Assembly: GCA_018816555.1 (NCBI GenBank)
Contig: JAHIVT010000071.1
Location: 898 to 64,897 of the forward strand
From: Pseudomonadota bacterium
GTDB lineage: Bacteria > Desulfobacterota > Desulfobulbia > Desulfobulbales > SURF-16
Direction: 5' to 3'
Length of the DNA stretch: 64,000 nucleotides
Numbering within the stretch: position 1 is the first letter of the stretch; each line of letters opens with the position of its first letter. The notes beneath the pieces were generated by a model. It was not told where the DNA came from and ran no database searches. It saw only the letters and a list, made by a program, of their open reading frames with translations. Made by a program: the position numbers and the translations under genes. Positions 1 to 35,835 of this stretch are shown here, piece by piece.

Positions 1-421
1 GCGAAAAATGCACCTGCCGCTCGGTGTGAGTGTCGCCGATGTAGGGACCGGGGTACGCGAATATCTCTTCGATTACCTGCTATCGGAAAAAGAAAGGCCA
101 CGGCATCTGATCATTGTCGATGCCATAGACCGGGAAGATAAAAACCCCGGCGAAGTCTTTGAAATCGACCCATCATCGGTTCCCGCAAAAAAACTCCACG
201 ATTTTTCTCTACATCAGTTTCCAACCGTAAACATGCTGCAGGAATTGCAGCAATTCACCGACATGAAAGTAACGATTGTTGTGGCGCAGGTCGAATCGTT
301 ACCAGAAGAGGTTTCACTTGGTCTTTCCCCGGCAATGGCAGCTGCCGTTCCCAAAGCCTGTCAGAAGATAATGGATATTCTATCCACAACCCAAAGCGAG
401 GTGACTGTCCATGATGTATGA
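1..421 (+). CDS. Ni-Fe hydrogenase maturation endopeptidase (HycI/HybD/FrhD family), 5' end outside window
   Basis: Frame is open from nt 2. Motifs VADVGTGVREYLFDYL...HLIIVDAID and SLHQFP fit hydrogenase C-terminal processing proteases. Its stop overlaps the next start (ATGATGTATGA, 411-421). Confidence 0.7.
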   Translation, partial: RKMHLPLGVSVADVGTGVREYLFDYLLSEKERPRHLIIVDAIDREDKNPGEVFEIDPSSVPAKKLHDFSLHQFPTVNMLQELQQFTDMKVTIVVAQVESLPEEVSLGLSPAMAAAVPKACQKIMDILSTTQSEVTVHDV

Positions 422-1868
422 GTTTAAAGTTGCTGATCTGGCGGAGGAGTTTGGTGTCCACCGAAACACCATTCGCAATTGGATCAACTCGAGAACCTTG
501 CCTGCGCAGGAGGGGCCTGGCAAGCGTTATGCTATGAAGGTATCAGATTATGTAGCCTTATGTGACAAGTTCGGCATCATTCCTAAAGTCAATATGGAAA
601 TGGCCGTTGAGATCGAGGAGCTGAAAACGATCACCACTGCCCAAACTGGTCAACCGATTCTTCAACTCGGCGAAAAAACCAACACCCTTTTTGACGATCC
701 ATCCTGGGGTGATGTCTGTCTGACCTGCGGCACCTGCGCCAGCGCCTGTCCCATCGCCGGGGTCAACGGCCTTGACCCGCGCAAGATTGTGCGCATGGCT
801 GTTTTAGGGCTGGAAGAGGAGCTGATTGAAAGCAGCTGGCCATGGAAATGCACCATGTGCGGCAAATGCGAAGAAGCTTGCCCCATGAACGTTGAGATCG
901 TCAAGCTCATGCGTCGTCTTCGTTCAAGACGGCCGAGAAATCTGGTGCCCGGCCCCATCCACAAGGGTGTCGCCATGTGTCTTGAGCGCGGCAACAATCT
1001 CGGCATCCCCAAGGATGATTTTGCCTTTCTGCTGCAGGATCTTGGTGAAGAACTTGCCGCGGAAACATGCCCCGGTTTCACGACCCCATTGGAAGTGCGC
1101 GGCTCAAGACTGCTGATTACCGTCAATTCAAAAGAGCCTTTTGCCGAACCGGATGATATGAAATGGTGGTGGAAAATCTTCTATGCCGCCAATGAATCCT
1201 GGACTGTCTCCGCCGACAACTGGGAGGGAGTCAACTGGGGTCTCTTTTCCGGTGACGACGAGGCCATGAAGACTATTGTCGGCCGGATTGTCGACAACCT
1301 GGAGAGGCTGCACTGCGAGGCCTTGCTCCTACCCGAATGAGGCCACGCCTATTATGCAACCCGGTTCGGGTTGAACAAATGGTTTCCTGAAGTACTCAAG
1401 AAAATCAAAATTTATTCCGTATTTGATCTTCTGCTCGAATATATGCGGGAAAACCGCATTACCCTTGACAACACCATCCATACCAAACTCGCCACCTACC
1501 ACGACCCTTGCAACTATGGCCGCAAATCGCTGAAAGCCTTCGGCCACGGTTATTTCGAGGAAGGCAGAATTATCACACGAGCCTGCTGTCCCTCCTTTGT
1601 CGATATGGAACCCAACCGCAACGGCAACTACTGCTGTGGTGCGGGCGGCGGCGCCTGGGCCATGCCCTATGCCCCGGAGAGGGTCTTCTACGGCCGTATC
1701 AAGGCCCGCCAGATTCAGGAGTGCGGGGCGAAAATGGTCATAGCCCCCTGTCATAACTGCCGTGACCAGCTGAAGAAATCGCTCAACAAGGAATTTGATC
1801 TCGGTATTGAGGTGAAATATCTCTGGGAGCTTGTTTCAGACTCAGTGATCATTCCCACTAAAAAATAA
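411..1868 (+). CDS. HTH_17-type DNA-binding domain fused to HdrD/GlpC-like Fe-S oxidoreductase (HdrC+HdrB-like); predicted selenoprotein (Sec codon 1338-1340)
   Basis: Track ORFs 411..1340 and 1371..1868 share a frame and only TGA 1338-1340 interrupts them. N-terminus FKVADLAEEFGVHRNTIRNWINSRTLP is excisionase/MerR-like HTH. Ferredoxin motifs CLTCGTCASACP and CTMCGKCEEACP. CCG-type motifs YHDPCNYGR, NYCCGAGGG, APCHNC. Read-through gives LLLPE-U-GHAYY. Stem-loop at 1357-1373. Confidence 0.75.
1357..1373 (+). promoter_or_regulatory. SECIS-like stem-loop downstream of UGA 1338
   Basis: CAACCC-GGUUC-GGGUUG: 6-bp stem at +20..+25 from the U of UGA, with a 5-nt loop containing GGU. Confidence 0.6.
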
Positions 1869-1913: not shown

Positions 1914-4900
1914 GTGTCAAGAGAGCAAACAATAGGATCGGTAATGGTTGTCGGCGGCGGTATTGCAGGTATGCAGTCAGCCCTGGACCTCGCCAACTCA
2001 GGTTACTATGTCTATCTGCTGGAACGCAGCGGCGCCATTGGCGGCGCCATGGCTCAGCTGGATAAGACCTTTCCCACCAACGACTGCTCGATGTGAATCA
2101 TCGCGCCAAAATTGGTTGAGTGCGGTCGGCACTTAAATATACAGTTGATGACCTTAAGCGAGGTCACCGGAGTAAGCGGCAGTGAAGGCAACTTTACCGT
2201 ATCGGTAAAGGAACATCCCCGCTATGTGGACACGAGCAAATGTATTGCCTGCGGTGAATGCGCAGCAAAATGTCCCAAAAAAGTAGATGATACCTACAAC
2301 GCCTCCACAAAAAAACGCAAAGCGATCTTCGTCAAATATTCCCAGGCGGTGCCCCTCAAATACCAGATCGATGCCGATGAGTGTATTTATCTGCAGAAAC
2401 CTGGCAAATGCGGTTTTTGCGCCAAGGTATGCCCGGCCGGCGCCATTAATTTCGAGGATACCGAAAAGCATCATGAAATCAACGTGGGCTCCATTATCCT
2501 TGCCCCAGGATTTCAAGCCTTTGATCCCAAAGATGCGGGCATCTGGGGCTACGGCACCCTGCCCAACGTCATCACCTCCATGCAGCTTGAGCGCTACTGT
2601 TCAGCCACCGGTCCGACAGAGGGGCATCTCATCCGCCCCTCCGACGGCAAACCGGCCAGAAAAATCGCCTTTCTGCAGTGTGTCGGCAGTCGTGATGAAA
2701 ACAAGTGCGGCAACGGCTACTGTTCTTCGGTCTGCTGCATGTATGCCATCAAAGAGGCAGTGATTGCCAAAGACCATGTCCCCGGACTGCAGACCACGAT
2801 CTTCTTCATGGATATGCGGACCCACGGCAAGGACTTTGACCGTTACTACCAACGGGCCAAAACGGAATCCGGCGTCCGCTTCATGAGATGCCGGGTACAT
2901 GGCGTTGAACCCCACGGTACGGATGGTGACCTGCGTCTGCATTATATCAACGAGGAAGGCCGCCAGGTTGAAGAATATTATGACATGGTGGTCCTGTCGG
3001 TTGGTCTGCAGACCCCGAAGCCCGTGGTCAGGCTGGCCAAGGATCTCGGCATCCAGCTCACCAGCGGTAATTTTGCCGCCACCTCAAACTTCATGCCTGT
3101 TCTGACCTCCAAACCAGGCATATTCACCTGTGGCGCCTTTGCCGGACCCAAGGATATCCCGCAATCGGTCATCGAGGGATCAGCAGCCGCGGCTGGTGTC
3201 GGTAACCTGCTGGCAATGAGCCGCCACACCCTGACCCGGGACAAAACCTTCCCGGCTGAACGGGATATCTCCTGCGAGGAGCCGAAGATCGGCGTTTTTG
3301 TCTGCCATTGTGGTTCCAATATCGCCGGCGTGGTCGACGTTTCATCTGTAGCGGATTACGCGGCCACCCTGCCGGGAGTTGCCCATGTGGAACGCAACCT
3401 CTTCACCTGTTCCCAGGACACCCAGGATCTCATGGTGAACCTGATCAAGGAAAAGGGCCTGAACCGGGTTGTGGTCGCGGCCTGCACTCCCCGGACCCAC
3501 GAGCCTTTGTTCAGAGAGACCCTCAAAGCCGCAGGTATCAATGAGTATCTCTTTGAAATGGCCAACATCCGCAACCAGAATTCCTGGGTACATGCCAAGG
3601 AACCGGCCAAGGCTACTGCCAAGGCCAAGGATCTGATCCGCATGGCCGTGGCCAAGGTATCGCCCCAGTTTGCCCTGCATCAGCTTTCCGTGCCGGTCAC
3701 CCGGTCGGCGCTGGTTATCGGCGGCGGTCTGGCCGGCATGACGGCGGCGCTCAACCTGGCTGACCAGGGCTTCCCGGTCCATCTGGTGGAAAAAAGCGAC
3801 CAACTCGGCGGCTTTGCCCGTATGCTGGACCATACCTGGAAGGGAGACGAAATCAAACCCCAGCTGGCCAACATGTCTGCTCGTATCGAGAACCACTACA
3901 ATATCACCCTGCATCTGCAGAGCGAGATCAAAGAGGTTGAGGGTTTTGTCGGCAATTTCCGCACTACGATACAGAACAAGGCGGGCGACAAGACCGTGAT
4001 CGAACACGGAGCAGGCATTGTCGCCACCGGCGGCAGGCGCTATCGTCCCCTGAAGGAATACGGCTACGGTGATATCAAGGGCGTCTTCACCGGCATTGAA
4101 TTCGATACCCTGCGCAAAGCAGGCGACATCAATGTCAGAGAGGGCAAAACCTTTGTCTTCATCCAATGTGTCGGCTCCCGCCAGAAAGACAGACCATATT
4201 GCTCCAAGGTGTGCTGCACCCATTCCGTCCAGTCGGCCATCAGGCTGAAAAAGGAAGATGCAACCCGCAAGGTTTATATCCTGTATCGTGATATACGAAC
4301 TTACGGCGAACGGGAGCTTCTCTATAAGGAGGCCAGGCAGCTTGGCGTTATTTTCATCAATTATGAACTGCACGGCAAACCCCTGGTCAAGCACGACATG
4401 GCCGGCATCCAGGTGGAGGTATGGGATCATGTCCTGCACCGCCCCCTATTCATCAGTGCCGATGTTGTGATTCTGGCAGAGGCGATTCTGGCCAACCAGG
4501 ACGGCAAGAAAATCGCCCAGCTCTTCAAGATTCCTGTTGATTCCGACGGCTTCTTCCAGGAAGCACATGCCAAACTGCGGCCGGTTGATTTTGTCACCGA
4601 CGGCATGTTTGTCGCCGGTCTGGCCCATTACCCCAAACCGGTGGAAGAATCCATTGCCCAGGCCATGGCCGCCTCCGCGCGTGCTGCTACCCTGCTCTCC
4701 AAGGAGTCGATCACCCTGGAGGCCATCAAGGCAACCGTGGTTGAGGATAACTGCGACGGCTGCGCCCTCTGTCTGGACGTCTGCCCCTTTTCAGCCATCA
4801 GCCTGATGGAATACACGAATAATGAAGGCAAAATCTCCCGCCGCATTGAGATCAACAAGGCCCAGTGCAAGGGATGCGGACTCTGCCAGGGCACCTGCCC

Positions 4901-4976
4901 GAAACGGGGTGTCTTTGTCGCCGGTTTCTCCCTTGATCAGATCAACAAACAGGTCGCAGCCGCCCTGGCGGTGTAA
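1914..4976 (+). CDS. hdrA: heterodisulfide reductase subunit A-like flavoprotein, extended two-module form; selenoprotein (Sec codon 2094-2096)
   Basis: GTG 1914 follows AAAGGAGGA. Track ORFs 1914..2096 and 2112..4976 share a frame. The TGA lies in the HdrA motif LDKTFPTNDCSM-U-IIAPKLVE, where Cys-type HdrA has Cys. FAD fold VVGGGIAGM; CIACGECAAKCP and CGFCAKVCP. Second module IGVFVCHCGSNIAG plus VIGGGLAGM. C-terminal CDGCALCLDVCP and CKGCGLCQGTCP. Confidence 0.9.
2116..2136 (+). promoter_or_regulatory. SECIS-like stem-loop downstream of UGA 2094
   Basis: UUGAGUGC-GGUCG-GCACUUAA: 8-bp stem (one G-U pair) with a GGUCG loop at +31..+35. Confidence 0.6.
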
Positions 4977-5046: not shown

Positions 5047-5466
5047 ATGAGTTATGAACCAAAAATCATTGCCTTTTGCTGCAACTGGTGTTCATACGCC
5101 GCAGCAGATCTGGCCGGGATATCCCGTATGGAGTATCCGAGCAATGTCCGTATTATCCGGGTAATGTGTTCGGGTATGGTCCATCCGGAAACGGTGGTGG
5201 AGGCCTTTAATCTTGGGGCCGACGGCATCATGGTCCTCGGCTGACACCTCGGTGAATGTCATTACCTGGATGGTAATTATAAGGCTATGGCCCGCTCGGA
5301 GATGATCACCTCTCTTCTGGAGGATTTCGGCATTGATCCGCAGCGGTTTCAAATAACCTGGGTATCGTCGGCAGAACCGGACAAATTCGTTGCAGCGGTT
5401 AAGCAAGTGACGGAACGAGTGAAAAACCTCGGCCCACACAAAAGCGAAGCTGCGCATGCAGCGTAA
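5047..5466 (+). CDS. mvhD: MvhD-type [2Fe-2S] hydrogenase delta subunit; selenoprotein (Sec codon 5242-5244)
   Basis: ATG follows AAGGAG. Motif [23 protein letters not shown] corresponds to GCHxGDCHY of Cys forms. Reading continues in frame to TAA 5464-5466 (139 aa). The track stops at the TGA. Confidence 0.85.
5261..5277 (+). promoter_or_regulatory. SECIS-like stem-loop downstream of UGA 5242
   Basis: AUUACC-UGGAU-GGUAAU: stem at +20..+25, loop at +26..+30. Confidence 0.55.
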
Positions 5467-5480
5467 CAAAGGAGGTTGAT

Positions 5481-6404
5481 ATGGCTGTTCGAGTAGCAGA
5501 AGAATGGCTTCATGCATGTTCCGGTTGTGAAGTTGCCATACTCAATATCGGCGAACCCCTTGTTGAGTTGCTGTCGGCACTTGATTTTGTTCACATACCC
5601 GTACTCATGGACCACAAGTATTACGGCCAGACCGGCGAGGGAAAGGTGCTTGACATCCCTGAAGCGGATGTTGGCATTGTTTCCGGCGGTGTGGGCAACG
5701 AAGAGCATCTGGAAGTTCTCGAGGAAATGCGCAAGAAATGCAAGATCCTCATTGCCCTGGGCACCTGCGCCACCCATGGCGGGTTGCCTGCCCTGCTCAA
5801 TAACTGGGACGTCAACGAAGCCCATAAGCAGATATACAAGACAATCACCACCGATGCCTGCACGGTACCGGATCAGAAGGTGCCGAAACCGCTTGACCGG
5901 GTTTATGCGCTGGATGAAAAGGTCAAGATTGACCTGATGATTCCCGGATGCCCGCCCAATTCCCAGCATATTGCCGGGGCAATTCTCGCCCTGCTCAACG
6001 GTGAAGAGGTCAAGCTGCCGACCAAAAGCGTCTGCGACACCTGCCCCACCGTGAGAAAAGGTAAAGGCGATGTCAAGAAGGTAAGGCGTTTTCTGGAAAA
6101 TGCGGCCTATATTGCCGAAGAACCCATCGACAAAATGCGCTGCCTGCTGGAGCAGGGCTTCATGTGCATGGGACCGGTGACCCTGGCCGGCTGCGCCAAA
6201 CGCGGAGCACCGAGCTGCATCATCGCCCGGGTACCCTGCCGCGGCTGTTTCGGCCCTGTCAGAAAAGGCGGCAATCAGATGCTTGATATGATGAACGCCC
6301 TTGCCAGCAACGGCATTGATTTCAAATCCGTCATAGACCGTAAAAACCTGTTGCGATTCTCTGGCGCCCACGGCCTGATCAGACAGCAACGGCCTACAGT
6401 GTAA
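5481..6404 (+). CDS. mvhG: Ni-Fe hydrogenase small subunit, cytoplasmic Mvh/F420-non-reducing type (no Tat signal)
   Basis: N-terminus WLHACSGCEVAILN, GTCATHGGLPA, MIPGCPP, and a C-terminal Cys cluster CMGPVTLAGC...PCRGCFGP. Lies between mvhD and the large subunit. Confidence 0.85.
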   Translation: MAVRVAEEWLHACSGCEVAILNIGEPLVELLSALDFVHIPVLMDHKYYGQTGEGKVLDIPEADVGIVSGGVGNEEHLEVLEEMRKKCKILIALGTCATHGGLPALLNNWDVNEAHKQIYKTITTDACTVPDQKVPKPLDRVYALDEKVKIDLMIPGCPPNSQHIAGAILALLNGEEVKLPTKSVCDTCPTVRKGKGDVKKVRRFLENAAYIAEEPIDKMRCLLEQGFMCMGPVTLAGCAKRGAPSCIIARVPCRGCFGPVRKGGNQMLDMMNALASNGIDFKSVIDRKNLLRFSGAHGLIRQQRPTV

Positions 6405-6415
6405 AGGAGCCAACT

Positions 6416-7867
6416 ATGGGAAAAGTATTAACTATTCAGCCAGTTACCAGGATCGAGGGCCATGCGAGCATTGCCATTGAACTCGACGACAACGGCAATG
6501 TAAAAGACACGAAACTGCATCTCATGTCTCTGCGGGGATTTGAGAAATTCATTGAAGGACGTCCGGCGGAGGAAGTACCCCGGATCGTTAACCGCATCTG
6601 CGGCATCTGTCCGTGGATGCATCATCTGGCCTCGGTCAAGGCAGTGGACGCCTGTTTCGGCGTCACCCCGACCCCGGCCGGTCATAAACTGCGCGAACTC
6701 TGCCAGGTGATGGCCCATATCAACGATAAAATTCTGCACTTCTTTTTCCTGGCCGCACCTGACTTTGTCATCGGTCCGGACAGCGACTATGCAGTGCGCA
6801 ATGTTATCGGCATCGTCAAAGCGGCACCGGAGCTTGCCCAACAGGTGGTCAAGATGCGGCAGCTCGGCCAGATGATGCTGGAGCGTTTTGCCGGCAAGGC
6901 GATTCATCCCATCGCCGGCGTTACCGGCGGCTTTGCCAAACCCATGACCGAAGTGGAACGCGTCGGTCTGCTCAGGGACACGGAGACATTGCTTGATTTT
7001 GCCGTCTACGCCCTGGACTTTGCCAAAAACAATGTCTTTAACAAGTACCTGGACGTCATTTCCAAACTGGGCACGATCACCACCGGGTTCCTCGGCACAG
7101 TGGACGACAATGGCGCGCTGAGGATCTATGACGGTAAACTGCGGCTCATGCAGCCCACCGGCGAGTACGTCGACTTCCCGTGTTCCGAATACACCGACTA
7201 TCTTGCCGAGCATGTGGAACCATGGGCCTATGCCAAAATGCCCTATGCCAAGTCATGGCAGGAAGGATTCTCCATGGATCTGGACCATCCCAAAGGCATC
7301 TACCGTTCCAATACCCTGGCCCGGATCAATGTGTGCGATCACATTGCCACCCCCAAGGCACAGGCAGCCCTGGAAGAGTTCCGGGCAAAATTCGGCAGAC
7401 CGGCCCAGTTTACCCTGCTCTACCACTGGGCTCGCCTGATCGAGCTGGTTTACGCCTGTGAACGGACCATCGAGCTGCTGCAGGACAAAAGCATCACTGA
7501 TCCCAACATCAGGGCCAAGGTCGAACCCAAGGCCGGTCGAGGGGTCGGCTGTGTGGAAGCTCCCCGCGGCTCTCTTATCCATGACTACACAACCGATGAC
7601 AACGGCTGCATTGTCAGCGCCAATCTGATTGTGGGCACCACCCACAATATTGCACCCATGAATATGAGCGTCAAACAGGCGGCAACCATGCTGATCAAAG
7701 ACGGCGTTTATGACCAGGGTATGCTGAACAAGGTGGAAATGGCGGTGCGCGCCTACGACCCCTGAATTTCCTGCGCAACGCACCACCTGGATGGTGGTAT
7801 GCCTTTGACCGTATCTATCATTGATGCCCAGGGAAAAGAAATTGACGTTCTGACCAACCTGGAATAA
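6416..7867 (+). CDS. mvhA: [NiFeSe] hydrogenase large subunit, Mvh type (Sec codon 7763-7765)
   Basis: N-terminal Ni-binding motif RICGICPWMHH. The C-terminal motif reads DP-U-ISCATH (DPCxxCxxH in NiFe enzymes) when TGA 7763 is read through to TAA 7865-7867. A 26-aa tail after the His is a plausible substrate for the maturation protease. Confidence 0.9.
7782..7798 (+). promoter_or_regulatory. SECIS-like stem-loop downstream of UGA 7763
   Basis: ACCACC-UGGAU-GGUGGU: stem at +20..+25 and loop at +26..+30. Geometry and loop sequence are the same as the mvhD element. Confidence 0.6.
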
Positions 7868-7872
7868 TGAAC

Positions 7873-7902
7873 GCAGCAATTCCTTGTCAAAGGAATTGCT
7901 GC
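7873..7902 (+). terminator. perfect 13-bp stem-loop directly after mvhA stop (terminator/attenuator or mRNA stabiliser)
   Basis: GCAGCAATTCCTT-gtca-AAGGAATTGCTGC. There is no clear U-tract. The track's TTG start at 7884 falls inside this stem. Confidence 0.5.
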
Positions 7903-7928
7903 ATACAACATATAAGGAGAACTTGGTG

Positions 7929-8174
7929 ATGACTGATACGACCCAGAAGAAGCGACATCAAATACGTGTCACCAGGACAGACAGCGCCTGTGGCTATGTG
8001 GGCCATATGACTGTTGATGAATTGAAAAAGGTTACTGTAGGCAATGACTTCGATGGCGCCTGTCCAACCTGTGGCCAGATTCATCTGACCCGGGAGGAGA
8101 TAGAGGAAATCGAAGGCGAAAAGGTCACAGACAGCAAGGAGTACAAGGACACGACCAAGGAAGCCGAGGCGTAG
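7929..8174 (+). CDS. small acidic-tailed Cys protein, unknown function (possible zinc-ribbon)
   Basis: AAGGAG at 7914-7919, then GTG 7926 / ATG 7929. Cys pattern SACGYVGH...CPTCGQIH. The last gene before a strong terminator. Confidence 0.4.
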   Translation: MTDTTQKKRHQIRVTRTDSACGYVGHMTVDELKKVTVGNDFDGACPTCGQIHLTREEIEEIEGEKVTDSKEYKDTTKEAEA

Positions 8175-8309: not shown

Positions 8310-10256
8310 TTACGGCAATTCATGGCAAAGGTTGCAGCCGATCACTTTCCCTTTTTTCACCGAAACAGTGCCACCTTCCTCCAGAGTAAATCTACGGTTT
8401 TCCGCCGCCCGTGACAAGACGGTGCCTCGCAGGTCTTTTCCATGGCAGGCCTGGCACCCGGCAGGATTTCCCTCATAAAATCCACTGTGATTATTATTCC
8501 AACGGCTGTCATTGACATTATGCATGCCGTGCGGTCCGTTGGTGGTTAAATTCAGCCCGCTGCCATGACAGGCAACACATTCAGTGATGGTTCCTGCATG
8601 TCCCTGGATCTCCAGGGCGGCGACATTGTCGTTTGCCTCAGCAGACGGCCAGATGGCGTGGGTGCTGCCGTGGCAGCTCTCACAGGCCAGTCCGCCGTGT
8701 CCGCGACTGTTGCGGAACAAGGTGTTATTCTGTTCGGCAAAGCGTTTATTTTCGGCAAGTAACGGCGTGGCTGCGGGATCAGCGGGATTGTATACGGTGG
8801 TCCAGCGGATCTTGCCGCCCCGATTCTGCACGGCATCACCGGTATGACACGACTGACATTTCGGCTCATCGATCCATGGAGTGCGGTCCTTGTAGGCCCC
8901 GGCCACGGCCAGCAACCCGCCATGACAATCCTGACAGACTATGCCGGCACTACCCATGGCGCCGCGCAGACACTGGGTGGTACTGCCTGGATGGCATGAG
9001 TAACAGGAGTTGGTTCCATCCTCGGGTATAATGGCCGGGTGATTGGCGTCAGGCAGAGTGCCATTCACGGTGCGGCCGTGTACTCCGTGCAGGGCAAAGG
9101 ACAACATGGGATTCACCACCTGAGCGCCTTGGGGACCGGTTCCAGCCAGATCCAGTGCAGGTGAGTAATGGCAGGAGGCGCACAGCACCGGCTTGGTGTT
9201 CATGAGATTGGTGCCGTTTTTGGCGTCGTGGAGGATGAGAATGTTTTCCCGATAGGCCAGTTCCATACCGGGCTCAACGCTCCATGACAACACGCCGTTA
9301 CTTTGCGCAGTTCGGTTATCCGCCGCCACTCCGCCGTTTGCATGGCAGTTGCTGCAGTGCATCTCTGCCGACACCGGCAGGACGATATCGGTTGTCGCCA
9401 GTCTGGCCCTGGTTTTCTTATTGACCGCAGTGATACGCATCATCGGATAATCGGCAACCCGATTGTTGTCATCGACAGCAAGAATCGGTATACCAGGGGC
9501 GGTAAACCAGTCATACCGCGGATCATACTCTGAAAAAAGCTGCTGCTTGTTGCCTGCTCCCGGCATGGTGGCCCCCAGTATGCCCTGGTTATCGGGCAGG
9601 CTCATGCCGAAAAGGTCATTGACATTATCCCAGAAATTGCTCTTGCCGATGCTGGTGGTATTAATCGAGCCACGGGTATCGGGCACCGCCCGATAGTAAA
9701 CATCCACCTGCGAATCATCGAGAATTGTCGGCTTCCCGCCCTTGCGAACCACCTGGGCGTGGATAACATTGAAAGGCGGCAACAGGGAAAATACGGAAAA
9801 ATCCCGGTCATAACAGTGCATACCCAAGTCATTGAAGGCCAAGAGCCGATAGCTGCCGGAAGATGGTGACGTGGCCGGTTCGTTCGTACATAAAGCCGGG
9901 GCGCCGGCAACCACTTTTGCAGCCACGATCTTGCCCACATTGGCGGTCACGCGGCAGGGCACGGAATTGGTTTGCGCTATTTTGACCTTCATGCTCCAAG
10001 ACCTGGATGTACGCTTGGTGGTTCTGCCGAGCACAACACCGCCCGCACTGTCTTTGATGGTGACAATATCACCGATATTGCACCTGCCCGCCAGCAACAA
10101 CAACTGTCGCTGATTGTCCCACTGCGCCTTGCTGACGGTAAGCGCAGCGGCTTCCGTTGCGACCGGCAGGGCAAAGATGGCAATCAGCAGCAGCACTTTG
10201 CAAGACATCACCATTGCCTTGCGGAAACGACAATTGACAACACCATGGTTAAACAT
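8310..10256 (-). CDS. secreted nonaheme c-type cytochrome
   Basis: Nine CXXCH motifs (CSNCH, CASCH, CYSCH, CQDCH, CQSCH, CESCH, CVACH, CQACH, CNLCH). Signal peptide KVLLLIAIFALPVATEA. Start is uncertain (10256, 10214 or 10208). Confidence 0.85.
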   Translation of the reverse strand: MFNHGVVNCRFRKAMVMSCKVLLLIAIFALPVATEAAALTVSKAQWDNQRQLLLLAGRCNIGDIVTIKDSAGGVVLGRTTKRTSRSWSMKVKIAQTNSVPCRVTANVGKIVAAKVVAGAPALCTNEPATSPSSGSYRLLAFNDLGMHCYDRDFSVFSLLPPFNVIHAQVVRKGGKPTILDDSQVDVYYRAVPDTRGSINTTSIGKSNFWDNVNDLFGMSLPDNQGILGATMPGAGNKQQLFSEYDPRYDWFTAPGIPILAVDDNNRVADYPMMRITAVNKKTRARLATTDIVLPVSAEMHCSNCHANGGVAADNRTAQSNGVLSWSVEPGMELAYRENILILHDAKNGTNLMNTKPVLCASCHYSPALDLAGTGPQGAQVVNPMLSFALHGVHGRTVNGTLPDANHPAIIPEDGTNSCYSCHPGSTTQCLRGAMGSAGIVCQDCHGGLLAVAGAYKDRTPWIDEPKCQSCHTGDAVQNRGGKIRWTTVYNPADPAATPLLAENKRFAEQNNTLFRNSRGHGGLACESCHGSTHAIWPSAEANDNVAALEIQGHAGTITECVACHGSGLNLTTNGPHGMHNVNDSRWNNNHSGFYEGNPAGCQACHGKDLRGTVLSRAAENRRFTLEEGGTVSVKKGKVIGCNLCHELP

Positions 10257-34791: not shown

Positions 34792-35835
34792 TCAAGTAAC
34801 CGCGAGATTAAATCCTCTGGCAAACAATGCCAGACAGGCATCCACCACCTCAGGGTCATAAATTTTTTTCCGCTGCCTGCTGATCTCCTGCAAGGCAGCC
34901 TTTTCCCCTTTGCCGGCCCGGTAAGGACGATGAGAAGACATGGCTTCGACCACGTCGGCCACCCCCACAATGCGTGCTTCCAGGAGGATCTCGTCGCCAA
35001 CAAGACCGGCAGGATAACCGCTGCCGTCCAGTCGTTCATGGTGTTGCTGCACAATTTGCGCAATGGGCCAGGGGAATTCGATTTCCTGTAAAATCTCGAA
35101 ACCGGCCTGGGGGTGGGTTTTCAGCAGTTTGAATTCGATATCCGTTAACTTTCCCGGCTTGCACAATATCTCGGCAGGGACATACAGTTTGCCGATATCA
35201 TGGATAATTGCCGCGGTCCTGATCCCTTTTATCCGGTCTTCGTCAAGCCCTCCCATCTCCCTGGCAATGGCGCAGGCCAACTGGGCAACCCTTTGTTGGT
35301 GCCCCGCCGTGTAGGGGTCTCTTTTTTCCGTTGCCGACGCCAAGGCATGGACCGTCTCGTCCACGACCCGGGTCATCTTCTCCAGACCCTCCCTGACTGT
35401 CGTTTCCAGCTTTATTTTTTCGGTGATGTCATAGAGAACGGCAACTGTCCCGATGACACGGTTTTTGTCATCAAGCACAGGCGCCGCAGAATAACTGATT
35501 CGTATATCCAAACCATCTTTTCTGGTAGCGCTGAGCGGCATGGAATTGAACACTTCCATGAGCAATGTCCGCCTTCGCAACTCTTCGTAAGTTCCCCAGC
35601 CATTTCGTGAAAGAACGCCAATTGACCGTCCAAGTACTTCCTCCTCTTGCCAGCCGGAAATCTGCTCGGCAGCCTTGTTCCACAGCCTGATATTTCCATC
35701 AAGATCAATGGCAATAATTCCCAGAGGCGATGACTTGACCAGCGCCTGCAAGCCTTGGGCATTCACCCTGATATCAGGCTGCCATATTTTTTCCGGATTT
35801 TTTCCATGTGTATTTTGCATATGCGTGGCTCGCAA
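34792..35835 (-). CDS. PAS-domain HD-GYP phosphodiesterase (c-di-GMP signalling)
   Basis: Motifs HDIGKLYVP and HHERLDGSGYP. N-terminal PAS GIIAIDLDGNIRLWNKAAEQISGW. Confidence 0.85.
   Translation of the reverse strand: MRATHMQNTHGKNPEKIWQPDIRVNAQGLQALVKSSPLGIIAIDLDGNIRLWNKAAEQISGWQEEEVLGRSIGVLSRNGWGTYEELRRRTLLMEVFNSMPLSATRKDGLDIRISYSAAPVLDDKNRVIGTVAVLYDITEKIKLETTVREGLEKMTRVVDETVHALASATEKRDPYTAGHQQRVAQLACAIAREMGGLDEDRIKGIRTAAIIHDIGKLYVPAEILCKPGKLTDIEFKLLKTHPQAGFEILQEIEFPWPIAQIVQQHHERLDGSGYPAGLVGDEILLEARIVGVADVVEAMSSHRPYRAGKGEKAALQEISRQRKKIYDPEVVDACLALFARGFNLAVT

Follow-up and report, generated by a model that had tools for sequence, protein, structure and literature searches.

An operon of the order glpC-hdrA-frhD-frhG-frhA, whose "GlpC" contains selenocysteine (Sec), was described in 2006 from Syntrophobacter fumaroxidans and Desulfotalea psychrophila (Zhang, Romero and Gladyshev, PMC1794560), and a Sec-containing hdrD4 from Desulfobacterium autotrophicum (PMC2702500). 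The gene analyzed here occupies bases 411–1868 of a window of 64,000 nucleotides (the whole stretch of DNA that was analyzed; forward strand, positions 898 to 64,897 of contig JAHIVT010000071.1, assembly GCA_018816555.1) from a bacterium of the Desulfobulbales (SURF-16), and encodes a Sec-containing GlpC/HdrD-like protein that begins with a predicted helix-turn-helix (HTH) domain. As far as the passages searched in PMC1794560 describe it, the 2006 operon agrees with the present one in gene order, in its four Sec partners, in bacterial group and in having a Sec GlpC/HdrD-like protein. The initial annotation of the window had stated that such Sec-containing Fe-S oxidoreductases were known, which is correct, the same operon having been published at that date; the selenoprotein half of the finding is thus right, and not new. 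An N-terminal DNA-binding domain or a leader element is not mentioned in the passages searched in the two papers (PMC1794560, PMC2702500). A protein with the HTH is encoded in a Desulfotalea metagenome-assembled genome (L075).

With the methanogen MvhAGD-HdrABC complex and with HdrD, DsrK, HmcF and TmcB the protein shares an HdrC-like part with two predicted [4Fe-4S] clusters, an HdrB-like CCG domain and HdrA, MvhD and MvhGA partners. Unlike methanogen HdrBC, it is one fused chain in which the C-terminal CCG motif alone is complete, its Sec is not part of the CCG motif that is retained, and it carries an additional HTH. Bifurcating complexes of the Hdr/Mvh type play a central part in how sulfate reducers, sulfur disproportionators and syntrophs conserve energy.

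Two further systems resemble the N-terminal domain. PutA, a proline dehydrogenase whose N-terminal DNA-binding domain represses the put genes, is a trigger enzyme. The likeness is that a redox enzyme carries its DNA-binding domain N-terminally, here with a candidate operator before its own operon; the difference lies in the ribbon-helix-helix fold of PutA, in the enzyme and in the signal, and a link between enzyme state and DNA is hypothetical in the present case. Streptomyces BldC, on the other hand, binds AATTNNNN(C) direct repeats of 9 bp as head-to-tail multimers (PMC5859096). BldC is a MerR-like winged helix with no effector or dimerisation domain and has the same small fold as that predicted for the HTH of HdrD, whereas the two are only about 20% identical and the candidate repeat found here, TGCACAA, differs. 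BldC moreover stands alone, whereas the HTH of HdrD, a putative binder, is tethered to a redox enzyme of 430 residues.

Gene structure and domains of the HTH-HdrD protein

The gene runs on the + strand from ATG 411 (MMYEFKV...) to TAA 1866–1868 in a single frame of 485 sense codons, the sole in-frame interruption of which is TGA 1338–1340, codon 310. The list of open reading frames (ORFs) splits it into 411–1340 and 1371–1868, the second of these restarting at TTG 1371, 10 sense codons past the TGA. The initial annotation had joined these two ORFs, parted in one frame by the TGA and 10 sense codons, into one gene; the sequence agrees throughout, and relatives are single proteins of 480–495 residues, not separate genes. 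The motif GAGGTG lies 8 nt ahead of ATG 411, and the MMYEF start is conserved across all loci. Since an in-frame stop is found 0–2 codons upstream of MMYEF in most loci, the start codon is fixed; a true start downstream of the HTH, which had been considered at the outset, is opposed by this upstream stop and by the HTH being the best-conserved segment of the protein. It is near certain that bases 411–1868 form one gene for a selenoprotein of 485 residues, and that the HTH domain is translated as part of HdrD. The gene and its parts are the following:

411–1868, + strand: HTH-HdrD selenoprotein gene, 485 codons, UGA codon 310 read through
411–575, + strand: N-terminal winged helix-turn-helix domain, residues 1–55, predicted from Pfam HTH_17, conserved columns, AlphaFold2 and Foldseek
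576–695, + strand: variable linker, residues about 56–95, predicted disordered (no conserved columns; low predicted local distance difference test score, pLDDT)
696–1040, + strand: HdrC-like domain, two [4Fe-4S] CX2CX2CX3CP motifs (Pfam Fer4_8; HdrC chains in the PDB)
1338–1340, + strand: UGA selenocysteine codon, residue 310, in LLLPE-U-GHAYY (aligned Cys in homologues; TGA in relatives)
1357–1373, + strand: predicted selenocysteine insertion sequence (SECIS) hairpin CAACCCG-GUU-CGGGUUG (codon-usage contrast, TGA vs Cys/Ser genes)
1494–1775, + strand: HdrB-like CCG domain with C367, C408, C409, C447 and C450 (Pfam CCG, HdrB profile, Foldseek)

The motifs noted earlier on either side of the TGA are present: upstream the two CX2CX2CX3CP ferredoxin motifs (C103/106/109/113-P and C147/150/153/157-P), and downstream those of CCG type, which make up one full CCG motif (C367 ... 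C408-C409-G ... C447-x-x-C450). Only this C-terminal one of the two CCG motifs of HdrB is complete, and by homology the CCG domain would be the site of a non-cubane [4Fe-4S] cluster. A domain scan of the read-through product finds Fer4_8 (45.8 bits), CCG (41.5 bits) and HTH_17, all above the Pfam gathering scores. Scores with the NCBIfam models of HmcF, TmcB and DsrK (190, 171 and 136 bits) are under the curated cut-offs of 750, 735 and 400, and the protein is for this reason regarded as HdrD-like and not as an HmcF, TmcB or DsrK equivalog. Residues about 100–208 match HdrC chains of Mvh/Hdr complexes in the PDB with E values of 4e-16 to 5e-18, and in a profile comparison the C-terminal part matches residues 103–240 of HdrB (5odc_B). 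A structural model was made with AlphaFold on a Cys homologue of 68% identity (P0002); its mean pLDDT is 88, and its best Foldseek matches are the HdrD-like part of mycobacterial EtfD, followed by LutA, HdrB and HdrC. These comparisons show a fusion of the HdrD type, in which an HdrC-like domain, predicted to hold two [4Fe-4S] clusters, is joined to an HdrB-like part. The protein probably belongs to an Hdr/Mvh bifurcating complex; by homology, it would be the HdrBC-equivalent of a cytoplasmic, H2-driven, HdrA-based bifurcating complex, that is, its high-potential output subunit of the disulfide-reductase type.

The assignment of the first ~55 residues to HTH_17, made in the initial annotation, passes the Pfam threshold, with 30.3 bits for the whole protein and 33.4 bits for residues 1–89 alone against a gathering score of 27; the excisionase model TIGR01764 gives 17 bits and remains under its cut-off of 28.8. 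No other stretch of the protein is as well conserved as the HTH. Residues A11, V16, H17, R18, N19, T20, R22, N23, W24, G37 and C51 are invariant in 34 sequences of 52–68% identity, and the same residues are invariant in 86 sequences except for V16, which is nearly so; basic residues come after G37. When residues 1–64 are modelled alone (AlphaFold2; pLDDT 84, range 82–90), strands are predicted at 2–6, 32–35 and 39–43 and helices at 7–14, 18–26 and 44–54, which gives the helix-turn-helix, the β-hairpin wing and the third helix of a winged-helix fold. The best Foldseek matches of this domain in the PDB are all MerR-like winged helices (RacA-DNA, BldC-DNA, NmlR, Pukovnik Xis and pSK1 Par), several of them solved bound to DNA. 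With RacA and BldC the template modelling (TM) score is 0.6–0.76, and 0.73–0.76 for BldC when normalised to BldC; the match probabilities are 0.9–1.0 but, the domain being small, the E values are only 0.01–0.3. Residues about 58–95 cannot be aligned, and residues 61–80 of the P0002 model have a pLDDT of about 42; in this model a long disordered tether carries the HTH, and the domain is not packed against the enzyme. The structure prediction suggested at the outset thus yields a MerR/BldC-like winged helix, and the models show the first 55 residues as a predicted winged helix of the BldC/MerR/Xis type on a disordered tether of about 35 residues.

One invariant residue of the domain may be mentioned separately. 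Cys51 (window 561–563), in the third helix of the HTH, is the same in 86 of 86 aligned family members. To our knowledge an invariant Cys of this kind is not a feature of HTH_17, and it is a possible redox switch.

The initial annotation had called the first ~55 residues the unusual feature. The fusion with an HTH is not peculiar to this gene, and it marks a whole clade. A search of 5.8 billion proteins (E ≤ 1e-10) returned 1225 relatives, the best 120 of which were inspected; almost all of these are single proteins of 480–495 residues with HTH_17, ferredoxin and CCG domains, from carriers that include Desulfobulbus, Desulfogranum, Desulfopila, Desulforhabdus and Syntrophobacteraceae. In a scan of one genome per species a relative is encoded in at least 348 genomes. 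Clustering at 50% reduces the HTH family to one full-length representative, the Sec-truncated form and fragments, and the nearest HTH-less HdrD-like proteins are at most 48% identical; this suggests that the fusion may have arisen once and was then retained. A homologue search with the HTH alone yielded 12 short fragments and neither a stand-alone HTH gene nor another fusion partner. Among the fragments, P0122 lies on a long-read metagenome contig (L093:4632–10201) where apparent indels have shattered the operon into small ORFs, and the other short HTH matches (40–102 residues, mostly on contigs under 6 kb) are probably fragments too. Automatic annotation labels the relatives "excisionase family DNA binding protein" or "helix-turn-helix domain-containing protein", and literature searches on HdrD with helix-turn-helix, HTH_17 or excisionase returned no published description of the fusion. 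As far as found, it is a conserved and apparently undescribed variant of the HdrD subunit.

An HTH-less HdrD-like relative of 39% identity was met at L218:2447–4018, with an MvhD-fused polyferredoxin before it and a DsrC-family gene directly after it. The DsrC-family neighbour hints at protein disulfides or trisulfides as possible substrates of the wider family.

Candidate operator repeats and the proposed role of the HTH

Since the window opens within hycI, with which the operon starts, the region upstream of hycI was read in relatives. Tandem repeats of 9 bp, (T)TGCACAA-NN, were found there. The 8-mer TTGCACAA/TTGTGCAA is found in 57 of the 69 upstream regions left after de-duplication, where 3.5 would be expected. 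GCACA-N4-GCACA has 55 exact occurrences in the 30.7 kb of upstream DNA and two in the other 1075 kb of the same loci, an enrichment of about 960-fold. The distances between GCAC cores show a sharp maximum at 9 bp, with 70 pairs; no other spacing between 4 and 30 has more than 11, and a lesser peak is seen at 18. In one locus that is 96% identical to the window in DNA (L009) the region reads TATGCACAATTTGCACAAGAGGCACAAAATG (L009:3440–3480) and would lie about 105–135 nt ahead of window base 1, its TGCACAA-NN stretch being TATGCACAATTTGCACAAGAGGCACAA; an equivalent region was found in about 75 other loci. Copies on the sense strand immediately precede or overlap the ribosome-binding site and start codon of hycI, and in many loci an inverted tandem pair is found 85–220 nt further upstream. 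The same repeats lie 3' of TTGACA-N17/18-TAnnnT promoters in Desulforhabdus amnigena and other loci of Syntrophobacterales type, the intergenic DNA of which is otherwise unrelated. In all loci examined the candidate operator and the HTH occur together, and the tandem repeats are absent from the two HTH-less sister genes that have readable upstream regions. These conserved tandem repeats ahead of the operon, with their sharp 9-bp period and their presence in distant orders as well, are new; a literature search on the letters of the motif returned primers only. The initial annotation had suggested a redox-coupled one-component regulator or a tethering to DNA, and to this suggestion the repeats lend indirect support.

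The explanation of the whole that we favour, at slightly better than even chances, is that of a Sec-containing HdrD subunit whose HTH represses its own operon through the repeats. The HTH would bind the repeats head to tail; those between the promoter and the hycI start, often together with the inverted pair upstream of the promoter, would serve as operator; and HdrD would repress its own operon when it is free, or when it has reached a certain redox state or state of assembly, and would thereby act as a trigger enzyme. Because BldC, a close structural relative of the HTH, binds direct repeats of 9 bp, autoregulation is the simplest reading of the repeats, and we consider it about an even bet. 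More tentative, and to our mind somewhat short of even, is the full proposal of a trigger enzyme, in which a Sec-containing subunit of an H2-driven Hdr/Mvh complex would bind 9-bp repeats at its own promoter under the control of redox, assembly or selenium status. A possible gate is the invariant Cys51 of the HTH; another would be the HTH-bearing product of 309 residues that could arise under selenium shortage, when UGA 310 is not decoded. Literature searches found no description of a subunit of a bifurcating complex that is coupled to transcription. If the proposal is true, a redox enzyme subunit doubles as a transcription factor, and an enzyme subunit of energy metabolism regulates its own genes; a DNA-binding domain borne by HdrD, together with a sharply defined candidate operator that is kept across orders, makes up a regulatory circuit that can be tested directly.

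Several points weigh against this explanation. Part of the invariance of the HTH (T-I-R-x-W) is the general signature of the MerR family. The HTH and the repeats are both invariant, and there is accordingly no covariation that links them; the HTH-less controls are two only. The repeats lie outside the window and are deduced from relatives, one of them 96% identical in DNA. They accompany hycI, and a small Cys/His ORF at the end of the operon, with equal strictness; the product of this small ORF might be the binding factor. The downstream copies overlap the ribosome-binding site and start codon, as would also fit an element acting in the RNA.

The strongest of the alternatives, which we nevertheless regard as unlikely, is that the HTH serves protein-protein contacts or assembly, or acts like RacA as a general tether of the Hdr/Mvh complex to the nucleoid, and that another factor, for example the zinc-ribbon-like small Cys/His protein or a regulator encoded elsewhere, binds the repeats. 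The best structural match of the HTH is indeed the chromosome anchor RacA, the small ORF, linked to the operon as strictly as the HTH, has faint zinc-ribbon/Com-like matches, and excisionase-type domains can mediate protein contacts, TorI being an example. Yet in the HTH it is polar and basic residues of the recognition helix and of the wing that are frozen (H17, R18, N19, T20, R22, N23, and G37 with the basic residues), the domain hangs on a long disordered tether and is unpacked on the enzyme in the model, and the geometry of direct 9-bp repeats fits the BldC mode.

Considerably less probable is that the repeats work on the leader of the mRNA and control initiation of hycI there, by a structure or by serving as a translational operator, instead of being a DNA operator. 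In its favour, every promoter-proximal copy has the sense orientation, and in many Desulfobulbales these copies overlap the Shine-Dalgarno sequence and ATG. On the other hand, the inverted tandem copy 85–220 nt upstream in many loci, apparently beyond the promoter, makes no sense as an RNA signal, no Rfam family matches, and the complementarity between two copies ends at the 8-nt core. The spacing of upstream and downstream repeat pairs is near integral helical turns in the six usable loci, but three of these are close relatives, and the number is too small to support a claim of helical phasing.

A sigma-54 promoter had also been considered for GGCAC...TTGCA. It was ruled out by the spacing, which is GG-N8-GC and not the GG-N10-GC of the consensus. 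In the window itself matches to the repeat motif are at chance level, one of them, with one mismatch, lying at 35048 inside a coding region. A metagenome scan for TGCACAANNTGCACAA listed at least 120 stretches, none of which is near an HTH-hdrD; the matches to TGCACAANNTGCACAA among those listed are mostly chance or Ala-Gln coding repeats. On one unrelated metagenome contig (L147:765–912), near genes resembling those of the CCA-adding enzyme and dnaE, two TGCACAA-NN-TGCACAA tandems point towards one another across about 130 bp of AT-rich intergenic DNA; they may belong to another BldC-like system.

Residue 310 and the recoding of UGA

The column aligned with the TGA is covered by 118 of the best 120 of the 1225 homologues. 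The survey of this residue that had been suggested at the outset gives Cys in 92 of the 118, Ser in 16 and another residue in 10 (Gly, Leu, Ile, Val, Tyr, Ala, Thr or Asp), P0003, P0089 and P0091 being among those that have no Cys. The two closest matches (94% and 83% identity) are proteins of 309 residues that the gene caller has cut at the same TGA. At the level of DNA, 87 loci can be read at codon 310, 80 of them from the scan of one genome per species: an in-frame stop is found in 77, it is TGA in each of the 77, always in the context LLLPE-*-GHAY, and in the remaining 10 the codon is TGC (4) or one for Ser (6). Among Desulfobulbales it is therefore the Sec form that is common. As the gene is split at the TGA, this form is masked in protein databases, which under-represent it: TGA stands in 77 of 87 loci, yet nearly all full-length entries have Cys or Ser. 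Gene callers systematically split the HTH-HdrD gene and three of its neighbours at their Sec codons.

A stem-loop follows shortly 3' of the UGA and carries G or GU in its apical loop, as bacterial SECIS elements do. It starts 16 nt past the UGA as a 7-bp stem (CAACCCG-GUU-CGGGUUG) with its apical loop 23 nt after the UGA, and can be drawn alternatively with a 5–6 bp stem and a GGUUC loop; the 6-bp stem with a GGUUC loop proposed earlier therefore holds, the drawing with 7 bp and GUU being equally good. The folding energy is ordinary (z from -0.9 to -1.1); since it is unremarkable, the single sequence proves nothing about a SECIS and comparison has to decide. Folding energy was accordingly dropped as a test, and a contrast in codon usage between 70 unique TGA genes (66–98% protein identity) and 10 Cys/Ser genes (TGC/TCN) was used instead. 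Codons 316–321 of the TGA genes read GCA ACC CGG NNC GGG TTG. In these, ACC, CGG, GGG and TTG show no synonymous change in any of the 70, while neighbouring codons of four- or six-fold degeneracy (Leu305–307, Pro308, Ala313, Pro326) vary freely. All 10 Cys/Ser genes encode the same amino acids by ACA/ACT, CGC/CGT, GGC/GGT and CTG/CTT. The stem is paired at 7 of 7 positions in 68 of the 70 TGA genes, compared with 3–6 of 7 in the 10 Cys/Ser genes. Counted over all related loci, the nucleotides of the hairpin are invariant in 77 of 77 with TGA, and it is lost from all 10 with TGC or TCN. Selection on the hairpin is thus confined to genes that bear the TGA, which is the signature of a SECIS, and the codon comparison shows UGA 310 as recoded by a predicted SECIS hairpin 16 nt downstream. 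Rfam has no family that matches the gene, the SECIS or the leaders, and the 64-kb window contains no tRNA genes. That TGA 1338–1340 is a true stop, leaving an HTH-HdrC-like protein of 309 residues and a separate HdrB-like protein of 165 residues, would agree with the splitting by gene callers (P0090 and P0112, 309 residues) and with a hairpin energy that is by itself not significant, but is extremely improbable, as a second gene would have no conserved start codon, the 10 codons between the ORFs code for the conserved segment GHAYYATR, full-length homologues carry Cys at 310, the hairpin is frozen solely in TGA genes and four TGA-containing genes share one operon.

Part of the family has given up Cys or Sec at 310 and retained the HTH and the CCG motif. 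This replacement, in about a fifth of the homologues (tallied as 24 of 118), also weighs against the favoured explanation as regards the Sec, as it makes a catalytic role of residue 310 uncertain. In the model of the Cys homologue, the residue aligned to 310 sits in a short segment between a strand and the next helix. Because it lies outside the five retained CCG ligands and is Ser in some relatives, we take Sec310 to be more probably a residue with a redox function at the substrate site, where a second cluster site would have degenerated, than an indispensable cluster ligand. A degenerate distal non-cubane site with a Cys-to-Ser exchange has been described in BamD of class II benzoyl-CoA reductase (bioRxiv 10.64898/2026.04.10.717634). 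BamD is likewise an HdrD-like output subunit of a bifurcating module of HdrA type; it differs in having no HTH and in belonging to another complex.

The operon and its surroundings

The other genes of the operon are the following:

2–421, + strand: 3' part of a hycI-like hydrogenase maturation protease gene, first of the operon (Pfam HycI, 74 bits; NCBIfam hydrog_prot, 81 bits)
1914–4976, + strand: hdrA, flavin-based bifurcating subunit; TGA 2094–2096 (NDCSM-U-II), hairpin 2117–2135
5047–5466, + strand: mvhD (Pfam FlpD, 182 bits); TGA 5242–5244 (VLG-U-HLGEC), hairpin 5261–5277
5481–6404, + strand: mvhG-like [NiFe] hydrogenase small subunit (Pfam Oxidored_q6)
6416–7867, + strand: mvhA-like [NiFeSe] hydrogenase large subunit; TGA 7763–7765 (DP-U-ISCATHH)
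7884–8174, + strand: small Cys/His protein, last of the operon, with CG.[VI]GHMT and CP.CG.[IV]HL and no Pfam or NCBIfam family

The hycI gene starts about 130 nt ahead of the window, and its stop overlaps the start of hdrD by 11 nt. The TGAs of hdrA, mvhD and mvhA are at known Sec positions and are accompanied by similar hairpins with GG(U) loops at comparable distances; judged from these features, the operon is predicted to encode four selenoproteins. Of 88 related loci, 68 have the complete order hycI-HTHhdrD-hdrA-mvhD-mvhG-mvhA; in 17 more it holds for as much of the locus as was sequenced, and the last three are without a hycI match. Directly 5' of HTH-hdrD stands hycI in 85 of 88. The synteny is also found in distant loci. 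The small Cys/His ORF closes the operon in the six relatives compared, after mvhA or, where mvhGA is absent, after mvhD. Its product may bind nucleic acid as a zinc ribbon, or may serve as a disulfide substrate of CPxC type.

The mvhGA genes are absent from four loci (L092:7504–13315, L090:7510–13523, L094:8001–13033 and L096:8001–13262). In L092 and L090 hycI is still the first gene, while L094 has neither hycI nor hydrogenase and lies between genes for glycerol kinase and an ABC transporter and glpA/B/C-like genes. The context of L094 suggests that other electron donors may be used there. Convergent to the end of the operon, the window carries on the - strand (8310–10256) an ORF of 648 residues with about nine CxxCH motifs that resembles multihaem cytochromes c.

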